Shown here: one piece after another, positions 3,772 to 5,120 of the stretch | Layout of the letters: every line of letters begins with the position of its first letter | Numbering within the stretch: position 1 is the stretch's first letter | Sequence record: OL960581 | Origin: Escherichia phage vB_EcoM_SA20RB | Direction: 5' to 3' (one strand) | Length of the DNA stretch: 64,000 bases | Position numbers and translations under genes: made by a program | Notes under the pieces: model-generated | Told to the model about the DNA's origin: nothing | Databases searched by the model: none | What the model saw: only the letters and a program-made list of their open reading frames with translations

Positions 3772-3848
3772 TGGTCGAGGCAGAAGGATTCTAACCTTCA
3801 ACCAACGGATTAGAAATCCGTTGCTCTATACAATTGAGCTATGCCCCG
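3772..3848 (-). tRNA. tRNA-Arg (anticodon UCU), CCA encoded
   Basis: Hand-folded: acceptor CGGGGCA/UGCCUCG, D-arm GCUC..GAGC, anticodon loop UUUCUAA, T-arm GAAGG-UUAGAAU-CCUUC, 3' ACCA. Confidence 0.8.
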
Positions 3849-3851
3849 TAA

Positions 3852-4517
3852 TTAAAATTTCATTTTTCGACCTTTAAACCATCCTTCTGGAATTGGGTCA
3901 GTTTTCTTAATACGTTTAGAAACTTTTTCATCTAATGAATGAATCCACATCATACCAAATTGGGAATTCTTTTCACCCTGTTGATGTTTATTTCTGGCGT
4001 GAGATTCTTTCATTTTATTAATAGTTTCAGGAGTATGGGTCTTACCCAAGAAAGATTTAGTATTTAAAAATTTCTCTCTATACTTAGGATTATCCCAAAG
4101 CTGTTTAAACCTTTCTGAACCCATTTTACGATATTTTTCTTTAAGGTCTGGGTCGTTCTCAAATCTGGTTTTAAAAGCAGCAGCCCCTTTTAAGGAAGCT
4201 TCTTTCTTTTTATCCAAATATTCTTTAGTGTTTAAATGGTCCCAACCACCTTCACCACCTAATTTCAAATTATAAACATCAAGGCGCTTTAAAAACTCTT
4301 CAGTCACAATATTCTTTTCTGACTCAAACATAGAGGTTTTATCGTCAAAGAACTCTAATATTTCTTTAGAGAAATTTTCTATACCATACTTGTCTTGGGC
4401 TCTTTTTAATAATTTACCAGAACCCATATATCCATCATCTAAATTTTCGGTAGAATGAGCGCCTATATAGATTTTATTATTAATTTTATTTGTTATTTTA
4501 TAAGTGTAATGGAACAT
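3852..4517 (-). CDS. segB: GIY-YIG homing endonuclease embedded in tRNA operon
   Basis: 221 aa; N-terminal KIYIGAHST...YMGSG GIY-YIG-type motif; sits between tRNA-Arg and the 7-tRNA subcluster as segB does in T4. Confidence 0.8.
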   Translation of the reverse strand: MFHYTYKITNKINNKIYIGAHSTENLDDGYMGSGKLLKRAQDKYGIENFSKEILEFFDDKTSMFESEKNIVTEEFLKRLDVYNLKLGGEGGWDHLNTKEYLDKKKEASLKGAAAFKTRFENDPDLKEKYRKMGSERFKQLWDNPKYREKFLNTKSFLGKTHTPETINKMKESHARNKHQQGEKNSQFGMMWIHSLDEKVSKRIKKTDPIPEGWFKGRKMKF

Positions 4518-4548
4518 AAATATCTCCTATTTCTAAGAGTATTTATGT

Positions 4549-4620
4549 TCCCAAAATATGGCCCTGGGTGGAATTGAACCACCATCTGGCGATTATGAGT
4601 CGCTTGCTTGAACCTTCCAG
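4549..4620 (-). tRNA. tRNA-Ile (anticodon CAU; AUA-reading type)
   Basis: Hand-folded cloverleaf; anticodon loop CUCAUAA; T-arm GGUUCAAUUCC; no encoded CCA. Confidence 0.75.
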
Positions 4621-4626
4621 CTACAG

Positions 4627-4699
4627 GGCCTTGATATGCTGATTGACGGAATCGAACCGCCGACCTTCTCATTACAAGTGAGTTGCTCTACCTACTGAG
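4627..4699 (-). tRNA. tRNA-Thr (anticodon UGU)
   Basis: Acceptor GCUGAUU/AAUCAGC, D-arm GCUCAGUAGGUAGAGC, anticodon loop CUUGUAA, T-arm GGUUCGAUUCC. Confidence 0.8.
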
Positions 4700-4706
4700 C
4701 TAAATC

Positions 4707-4793
4707 AGCGAAATTACGGAGGCGATAGGATTTGAACCTATGAGTCGCCGGAGCGACTGCCGGTTTTCAAGACCGGTGCATTAAACCACTCTG
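4707..4793 (-). tRNA. tRNA-Ser (anticodon UGA), long variable arm
   Basis: Acceptor GGAGGCG/CGCCUCC, anticodon stem-loop CCGGU-CUUGAAA-ACCGG, long extra arm, T-arm GGUUCAAAUCC. Confidence 0.8.
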
Positions 4794-4795
4794 CC

Positions 4796-4869
4796 ACGCC
4801 TCCAGTCTCCGCGGCAGGATTTGAACCTGCGACATTCTGCTCCCAAAGCAGACGCTCTACCAAACTGAG
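4796..4869 (-). tRNA. tRNA-Pro (anticodon UGG)
   Basis: Acceptor CUCCGUG/CGCGGAG, anticodon loop UUUGGGA, T-arm GGUUCAAAUCC; separated from tRNA-Ser by 2 nt (dimeric precursor). Confidence 0.8.
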
Positions 4870-4882
4870 CTACACGGAGTAA

Positions 4883-4953
4883 ATTAAATTTGAGCGGATA
4901 ATGAGAATCGAACTCACATCATCAGATTGGAAGTCTGAGGTAATACCATTATA
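4883..4953 (-). tRNA. tRNA-Gly (anticodon UCC)
   Basis: Acceptor GCGGAUA/UAUCCGC, anticodon stem-loop UCAGA-CUUCCAA-UCUGA, T-arm GUGAG-UUCGAUU-CUCAU. Confidence 0.8.
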
Positions 4954-4959
4954 CGATAT

Positions 4960-5046
4960 CCGCAAACTTTGGTACGAGAAGTGGGACTCGAACCCACAAG
5001 GAAATCATTCCGCAGCATTTTAAGTGCTGTGCCTTTACCAATTTGG
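4960..5046 (-). tRNA. tRNA-Leu (anticodon UAA), long variable arm, CCA encoded
   Basis: Acceptor GCGAGAA/UUCUCGU, anticodon stem-loop CAGCA-CUUAAAA-UGCUG, T-arm GGUUCGAGUCC, 3' ACCA. Confidence 0.8.
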
Positions 5047-5047
5047 C

Positions 5048-5120
5048 CATTCTCGCGCTGGGAATAAAGGACTCGAACCTTTGCATCTAGCAGTCAAAGT
5101 GCTGTGCCTTACCAACTTGG
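5048..5120 (-). tRNA. tRNA-Gln (anticodon UUG)
   Basis: Acceptor UGGGAAU/AUUCCCA, anticodon loop CUUUGAC, T-arm GGUUCGAGUCC; 1-nt spacer to tRNA-Leu. Confidence 0.8.

Follow-up and report, generated by a model that had tools for sequence, protein, structure and literature searches.

A predicted T4-type tRNA operon with the homing endonuclease gene segB in Escherichia phage vB_EcoM_SA20RB

The transfer RNA (tRNA) cluster of bacteriophage T4 has been studied since 1972, and it supplied both the first dimeric tRNA precursors and a substrate for RNase P. Here we describe a homologous locus in a 64-kb stretch (64,000 nucleotides, hereafter the window) of Escherichia phage vB_EcoM_SA20RB (record OL960581), in which all genes of the operon lie on the minus strand. 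Judged from its sequence, the locus is almost certainly the tRNA operon of a T4-like (Tequatrovirus) phage, comprising eight tRNA genes, the predicted homing endonuclease gene segB and homologues of rnaD and rnaC, the genes of two small stable RNAs in T4; this confidence is placed jointly in a single processed transcript, in tRNAs that supplement codon decoding and in a repressed, selfish segB. T4-type tRNA clusters with segB are already known from work on T4 and from the annotated genomes of close relatives, and a 2-kb query from the region matched homologous DNA in 969 phage records, nearly all of them T4-like phages of enterobacteria. What the analysis yields is a clean annotation of a non-T4 variant, with rnaC, rnaD, the promoter, the terminator, the segB hairpin and a reading of one tRNA as tRNA-Ile2.

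T4 (NC_000866, 70,908-72,530, with the tRNA/segB part at 71,173-72,530) has the same gene order on the same strand and shares the flanking genes (trna.2, trna.3, trna.4, ipI and 57B upstream, e.8 downstream). Also common to both are a segB of 666 nucleotides (nt), the 1-nt Gln-Leu and 2-nt Pro-Ser spacers, the segB hairpin, rnaC and rnaD. The two loci nevertheless differ: over positions 3425-5713 the window is only 89% identical to T4, its tRNA-Arg is an unrelated allele, its tRNA with anticodon CAU matches at 47 of 72 positions, tRNA-Pro carries 12 differences and SegB is 83% identical. The terminal CCA is encoded in four tRNA genes of T4 (Gly, Leu, Thr and Arg) but in only two, Leu and Arg, of the window and of Yersinia phage fPS-2, and T4 lacks an open reading frame (ORF) of 157 amino acids (aa) that is found downstream of the window terminator at 2910-3383. 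The closest match is fPS-2, a Tequatrovirus (LR215722 / NC_054943; tRNA region 68,794-70,796), which is 97.8-98.5% identical, the upper figure applying over 2 kb; since identity is 89% to T4 and up to 98.5% to fPS-2, the window is not T4 itself. In fPS-2 the same eight tRNAs and the endonuclease gene are annotated, segB matches that of the window at 99.7% identity, and both the extra ORF (g131c) and the terminators annotated there are shared with the window, but rnaD differs from that of the window at 15 of 121 alignment columns, and neither rnaC nor rnaD is annotated in the record.

Two further relatives share parts of the arrangement. T2 (AP018813, 67,371-68,651) has Gln, Leu, Gly, Pro and Ser in common with the window, together with an identical CAU tRNA (72/72) and an rnaC that is 97.8% identical, but it lacks segB and tRNA-Thr and has instead Met(CAU)-Tyr-Asn-Arg plus two ORFs; its CAU tRNA gene encodes CCA, which that of the window does not, and its tRNA-Asn holds the preferred SegB cleavage site (PMC2330249), whereas the window has no tRNA-Asn. 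In T6 (AP018814) segB lies directly upstream of tRNA-Arg within the tRNA cluster, as in the window, and the SegB proteins agree at 178 of 221 residues. However, Gln-Leu-Gly-Thr-Ile(CAU)-Tyr precede segB there, Pro and Ser are missing, the Arg and CAU alleles are of the T4 type, and T6 has a tRNA-Tyr that the window lacks.

The proposed transcription unit and its eight tRNA genes

In transcription order, the minus strand reads Gln-Leu-Gly-Pro-Ser-Thr-CAU, then segB, Arg, rnaD, rnaC and a terminator; gene content, spacing, CCA status, homology, the promoter, terminator and hairpin sequences and the codon statistics are taken directly from the DNA. Across the whole window ARAGORN called exactly eight tRNA genes; they all lie on the minus strand, within 3772-5130, and the Rfam tRNA model RF00005 recovered the same eight at 59.9-72.9 bits (gathering score 29). 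An earlier note on this DNA had named these eight tRNA genes and given several of their anticodons, and both predictors bear it out; of the span that it gave for the operon, 3772-5120, the lower end stands, while the upper end should be 5130, 10 nt of tRNA-Gln having been cut off. The operon also reaches past that span, downstream to rnaD, rnaC and the terminator and upstream to a MotA-type promoter. The promoter, the tRNA genes and the terminator are as follows.

5200-5224, minus strand: middle-promoter-like site (MotA box TGCTTTA, N12, TATTAT), about 70 nt upstream of tRNA-Gln
5058-5130, minus strand: tRNA-Gln (UUG), 62.1 bits with Rfam, CCA not encoded, 72/73 identical to T4 (ARAGORN: Gln-ttg, 5057-5130)
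4970-5056, minus strand: tRNA-Leu (UAA), CCA encoded at 4970-4972, 85/87 identical to T4 (ARAGORN: Leu-taa, 4970-5056)
4893-4963, minus strand: tRNA-Gly (UCC), 3' CAA where T4 encodes CCA, 71/71 identical to T4 (ARAGORN: Gly-tcc, 4892-4963)
4806-4879, minus strand: tRNA-Pro (UGG), without CCA, 12 differences from the T4/T2 allele (ARAGORN: Pro-tgg, 4805-4879)
4717-4803, minus strand: tRNA-Ser (UGA), long variable arm, without CCA, 87/87 identical to T4 (ARAGORN: Ser-tga, 4716-4804)
4637-4709, minus strand: tRNA-Thr (UGU), without CCA (T4 encodes CCA), 70/73 identical to T4 (ARAGORN: Thr-tgt, 4637-4709)
4559-4630, minus strand: CAU tRNA, most likely tRNA-Ile2, without CCA, found by ARAGORN (4559-4630) and Rfam
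3772-3848, minus strand: tRNA-Arg (UCU), CCA encoded, 69.7 bits with Rfam, beginning 3 nt after the segB stop codon (ARAGORN: Arg-tct, 3772-3848)
3434-3457, minus strand: intrinsic terminator (10-bp stem with 7 G-C pairs, T-run), predicted to close the transcription unit

The pattern TGCTTYA-N11-13-TANNNT matches the window at 12 places where 2.6 would be expected, and the site at 5200-5224 is among them. A scan for sigma-70 promoters was uninformative (23 sites vs. 22 expected). In T4, a middle promoter has been placed just upstream of the tRNA cluster, and transcription ends after the species I RNA gene (PMC2330249). We propose that the locus forms one minus-strand transcription unit running from the MotA-type middle promoter at 5200-5224 to the terminator at 3434-3457, with read-through from promoters further upstream probably adding transcript. 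Such a transcript would carry the seven packed tRNAs, the segB message, tRNA-Arg, rnaD and rnaC, and would be cut by host enzymes.

Counted from the discriminator base with Rfam boundaries, the spacers measure 1 nt (C) between Gln and Leu, 9 nt between Leu and Gly (CCA plus 6), 13 nt between Gly and Pro, 2 nt (CT) between Pro and Ser, 7 nt between Ser and Thr and 6 nt between Thr and the CAU tRNA. This is the 1-13 nt range that the earlier note had reported, and its suggestion that the shortest spacers imply dimeric precursors would fit classical T4 findings, by which tRNAs arise from dimers and depend on the CCA-adding enzyme of the host (reviewed in PMC11143913). By analogy with that work and with work on E. 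coli, we infer that RNase P would form the 5' ends by cutting dimers such as Gln-Leu, Pro-Ser and Thr-Ile, and that 3' exonucleases would then trim the products. CCA is encoded only after Leu and Arg, again as the note had read it, so the six of eight tRNAs whose genes lack it need the host CCA-adding enzyme, which would finish them. Relative to T4, CCA has been lost at two genes, Gly (CCA to CAA) and Thr (ACCA to ATATCA). The 12 changes in tRNA-Pro are ordered by the fold: eight make up four doubly compensated pairs (27-43, 31-39, 49-65 and 50-64), three are switches between G.U and G-C or between U.G and U-A in the acceptor stem, and one lies in the variable loop, so that all 11 stem changes keep pairing.

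With the CAU tRNA taken as tRNA-Ile2 (see below), all eight tRNAs read A-ending codons: CAA, UUA, GGA, CCA, UCA, ACA, AUA and AGA. E. coli decodes these eight codons with minor tRNAs. We compared codon usage with a crude caller applied in the same way to window and host (non-overlapping ORFs beginning with ATG, at least 100 aa), which gave 57 ORFs and 18,528 codons for the window, with a G+C content of 36%, and 40 ORFs and 13,824 codons for a 50-kb stretch of E. coli K-12. Ranked by the window/E. coli ratio, the eight cognate codons fell between 1 and 19 out of 61 (AGA 1, ACA 2, UCA 5, AUA 6, GGA 7, UUA 11, CCA 18, CAA 19; permutation p~1e-5), and the ranking held within the 14 A-ending sense codons (exact p=0.004). 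The phage uses these codons two- to six-fold more than E. coli does; together they account for 171 per 1000 codons in plus-strand ORFs (mostly late structural genes) and 146 in minus-strand ORFs, vs. 68 in E. coli. These figures agree with the claim in the earlier note that the tRNA set matches codons favoured by an AT-rich phage. We propose that the tRNAs would supplement the decoding of host-rare A-ending codons, mainly in late genes.

Identity of the CAU tRNA

The sources agree on the anticodon of the tRNA at 4559-4630 and part over the amino acid: the earlier note called it Ile, whereas ARAGORN labels it 'Met', its default for CAU. We consider it highly likely, on its sequence, that this is a tRNA-Ile2 which would be modified with lysidine, as in E. 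coli, and would read AUA. Because the gene is only 47/72 identical to the tRNA-Ile of T4, this call rests on identity elements, not on orthology. The acceptor stem (GGCCCUG/CAGGGCC) contains C4-G69 and C5-G68, and position 27-43, where C27-G43 is missing, holds A.C. The first two pairs are positive determinants of TilS for lysidine, and C27-G43 is the main determinant of TmcA, the tRNA-Met acetylase (PMC2500205). At the same position the E. coli tRNA gene ileX has G.U, and an E. coli prophage tRNA-Ile has A.C like the window gene; overall, the window tRNA is identical to ileX at 55 of 72 positions and to the prophage tRNA-Ile at 59 of 72. Its 17-nt anticodon arm, AGCGACUCAUAAUCGCC, is identical to that of the PGAP-annotated prophage tRNA-Ile and differs little from that of ileX, and among 5423 E. 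coli genomes the genes that match the window tRNA best carry the annotation tRNA-Ile.

The alternative, that this is an elongator tRNA-Met that reads AUG and carries no lysidine, draws on labels and on allele history. ARAGORN and the annotations of T2, T6 and fPS-2 say Met, the identical gene of T2L was named tRNA-Met by Brok-Volchanskaya et al. (PMC2330249), and the tRNA-Ile of T4 from which the window gene diverges so far has been characterised biochemically. However, annotation tools give the Met label automatically to every CAU anticodon, and the T6 'tRNA-Met' is 74/74 identical to T4 tRNA-Ile, so the label is unreliable. The TilS pairs, the replacement of C27-G43 by A.C, the anticodon arm of a prophage tRNA-Ile, the tRNA-Ile annotation of the best E. 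coli matches and the abundance of AUA, three-fold commoner in the window than in E. coli, all speak against an elongator tRNA-Met, which we regard as unlikely.

segB and the tRNA alleles beside it

The 710-nt gap between the CAU tRNA and tRNA-Arg is occupied by the segB ORF, whose start lies in a predicted RNA hairpin.

3852-4517, minus strand: segB, predicted free-standing GIY-YIG homing endonuclease gene, 221 aa (Pfam, PHROG and T4 homology)
4511-4551, minus strand: hairpin burying the segB Shine-Dalgarno sequence (AGGAG) and AUG, -21.4 kcal/mol, z = -7.9

The predicted protein matches the Pfam GIY-YIG family PF01541 at 25.6 bits (cut-off 22.6) and PHROG 314, 'homing endonuclease', at E = 5.9e-47. 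It is identical to T4 SegB at 185 of 221 residues (83%), with equal length and equal flanks, and the placement of a GIY-YIG segB between the seven-tRNA subcluster and tRNA-Arg is thus as the earlier note had described it. Differences from T4 SegB are concentrated in the middle third of the protein. Y17 and G19, the residues that were mutated to inactivate T6 SegB (PMC13096335), are present in the window translation. DNA resembling segB occurs in 187 of the 969 related records, the patchy spread that a mobile gene would show, and in 55 records the identity of segB is at least 95%.

Characterised in 2008, SegB of T4 is an endonuclease that depends on Mg and cleaves tRNA genes at the 3' end; its site spans 27 bp with the core GGTTCRANTCC, which corresponds to the T-arm, and cleavage is preferred after CCAR (PMC2330249). 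The phages T2L, RB1 and RB3 lack segB and have the preferred SegB site in tRNA-Asn, and in crosses of T4 with T2L 99.6% of the progeny inherit segB, provided that segB is intact (PMC2330249). In the window the core occurs exactly seven times in 64 kb, always within the operon (Gln, Leu, Pro, Ser, Thr, the CAU tRNA and rnaC), while Arg departs from it by one mismatch and Gly by two. The absence of tRNA-Asn means that the preferred SegB site is absent, and with CCA lost at Gly and Thr two of the CCAR cleavage cues for SegB are gone. By analogy with the T4 literature, we predict that the window SegB is an active homing endonuclease and that segB is a selfish gene: its product would cut tRNA 3' ends at GGTTCRANTCC and, in mixed infections, would convert segB-less relatives to the segB-bearing form of the tRNA region.

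Two features would keep expression of this gene low, the hairpin that covers the ribosome-binding site and a cut by RNase P beside the stop codon. The hairpin, which has been proposed to act as a translational brake (PMC2330249), also forms in T4, with one compensatory pair that is G-C here and A-U in T4. The same change alters codon 3 of SegB, which specifies His here and Tyr in T4, and this suggests that the beginning of the segB coding sequence is under constraint from RNA structure. At the other end, tRNA-Arg starts 3 nt past the segB stop, which fits the proposal that RNase P cuts the segB message at its end.

Recent work on T6 brings in a different account, possible in our judgement though doubtful, in which the main role of the operon would be counter-defence: its tRNAs would stand in for those of the host that tRNA-targeting defence nucleases have cut, and segB would persist for its ability to amplify tRNA or anti-defence segments under selection. 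SegB has been shown to amplify genes for tRNAs and for anti-defence: that of T6 drives the segmental amplification of tRNA-Tyr plus segB, by which the phage escapes Septu, and an association of segB homologues with tRNA genes is widespread (PMC13096335, 2026). The window protein is the 178/221 relative of that enzyme with Y17 and G19 intact, and the several distinct Arg, CAU and Pro alleles among close relatives would fit diversifying pressure. Yet tRNA-Tyr, the Septu target, is absent from the window, which shows single copies and no tandem amplification, and the strong match between the tRNAs and the over-used codons is not predicted by a pure decoy model. Counter-defence and codon supplementation are not mutually exclusive.

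Nothing observed contradicts the reading that we prefer, an operon of codon-supplementing tRNAs with a repressed, selfish segB, though several points qualify it. SegB has 36 substitutions in 221 residues relative to its T4 counterpart, clustered in the central part, and its site preference is assigned by analogy; likewise, processing and expression in this phage are modelled on T4. The CAU tRNA is the T2 allele, which others call Met. Finally, T4 mutants with deletions of the tRNA region are viable on laboratory hosts, making the region non-essential (PMC2330249), and a region dispensable in T4 would imply a translational benefit that is modest or host-dependent.

The tRNA-Arg next to segB departs from the usual tRNA fold at the elbow, where its D-loop AAUUGUAUA and T-loop UUAGAAU replace the near-universal G19:C56 pair with U19:A56. 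When phage contigs were chosen by the D-arm TAGCTCANNTGTATAGAGCA alone, A56 was found in 52/52 distinct complete tRNAs, and when they were chosen by the anticodon arm alone, C56 accompanied GG in the D-loop in every case and A56 occurred in the one tRNA with TGTATA. Position 56 and the D-loop GG were tabulated for 750 distinct tRNAs from the fetched loci, among them 613 with C56 and GG, 55 with A56 and no GG, one with A56 and GG, and three with C56 and no GG. That the U19:A56 tRNA-Arg class might be specific to phages was considered and rejected, the D-arm being present in more than 110 bacterial species; its bacterial carriers belong to Bacteroidota, Clostridia and Pseudanabaena, and 105 of 114 have A56, across Arg isoacceptors. 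A search of the literature library used here returned no relevant paper on a phage tRNA-Arg with a swapped 19:56 pair. In DNA, the swap turns the GGTTC of the SegB core into GGTTA.

The elbow and the CAU tRNA, with its 3-bp D stem and its A.C mismatch at 27-43, might be taken as decay, and the dispensability of the region in T4 would agree with some of the tRNA genes, or segB, being functionless relics. We find this extremely improbable: all eight tRNAs score 60-73 bits on the tRNA covariance model, the changes relative to T4 alleles are compensatory, the Arg elbow being itself compensated in all 52 of the phage tRNAs picked by their D-arm, and segB, which is intact in length and retains its catalytic residues, is held at high identity by the 55 records counted above.

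Around segB the alleles may have been exchanged piecemeal. tRNA-Arg (UCU) represents a third allele, unrelated to that of T4 and T6 and set between flanks identical to T4; a match to the T2 allele was considered and rejected, only 61 of 74 positions being identical. The CAU tRNA follows the T2 allele as far as the discriminator base and then passes into a segB leader of the T4 type, the CCA of T2 having been lost. The locus is a mosaic at the 100-bp scale, with an rnaD that differs at 1 of 121 columns from T4 and at 15 of 121 from fPS-2, and allelic differences from T4 preserve pairing. As a tentative and rather improbable extension of these sequence comparisons, the tRNA genes beside segB may be exchangeable cassettes with joints at the tRNA 3' ends that SegB would cut, and pressure from SegB may select functional alleles that are refractory to the nuclease, such as the U19:A56 tRNA-Arg. 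Allele shuffling at tRNA boundaries around segB is one lead to come out of the analysis.

rnaD, rnaC and neighbouring ORFs

Between tRNA-Arg and the terminator lie two further RNA genes.

3653-3770, minus strand: rnaD (species 2 RNA) homologue, 118/119 identical to T4 rnaD (NC_000866)
3508-3646, minus strand: rnaC (species 1 RNA) homologue with a tRNA-like acceptor/T-arm module, 137/139 identical to T4 rnaC

Within the region 2500-6500, no Rfam family matched rnaC or rnaD at E<=1, and the sub-threshold matches (Plastid-ycf2, sX4 and YrlA) were set aside as tRNA look-alikes. rnaC was found in 743 phage records, almost none of which annotate it or rnaD. The fold of rnaC (z = -4.6) is closed by an acceptor-like stem and has three hairpins: a long one on the 5' side, one of 10 bp whose loop, AGCGUCAACU, is invariant, and one resembling a T-arm. 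When seven phages of the four genera Tequatrovirus, Kanagawavirus, Winklervirus and Tegunavirus were aligned, compensatory changes were found in 15 of 46 consensus pairs, in support of this fold. The exact SegB core motif inside rnaC lies at 3520-3530. Reviews list the function of rnaC as unknown (PMC3014915, PMC9697503). A structure supported by covariation for an RNA that has been without a known function for 50 years is a second lead.

The late-promoter consensus TATAAATA, looked for upstream of segB and tRNA-Arg, is absent from 3428-5468 on the minus strand; the nearest sites are at 5469-5476, inside an upstream ORF, and at 3420-3427, beyond the terminator. The site at 5469-5476 (minus strand) sits in the trna.2 homologue, about 340 nt before tRNA-Gln, and a late promoter there might add late transcription of the tRNAs, rnaC and rnaD. 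A T4 transcriptome study reportedly classed rnaC and rnaD as late RNAs.

No Pfam family was matched by the ORFs at 2404-2679, 2910-3383, 5228-5521 and 5518-5937, and PHROG matches to the neighbouring ORFs were to unknown-function families only. The 157-aa ORF at 2910-3383 (minus strand), which belongs to PHROG 2280, a family of unknown function, is present in fPS-2 and missing from T4, T2 and T6. It is flanked by two near-identical terminator hairpins, at 2879-2902 and at 3434-3457, and is preceded by the TATAAATA site at 3420-3427; it looks like a cassette put in by recombination at the terminator.

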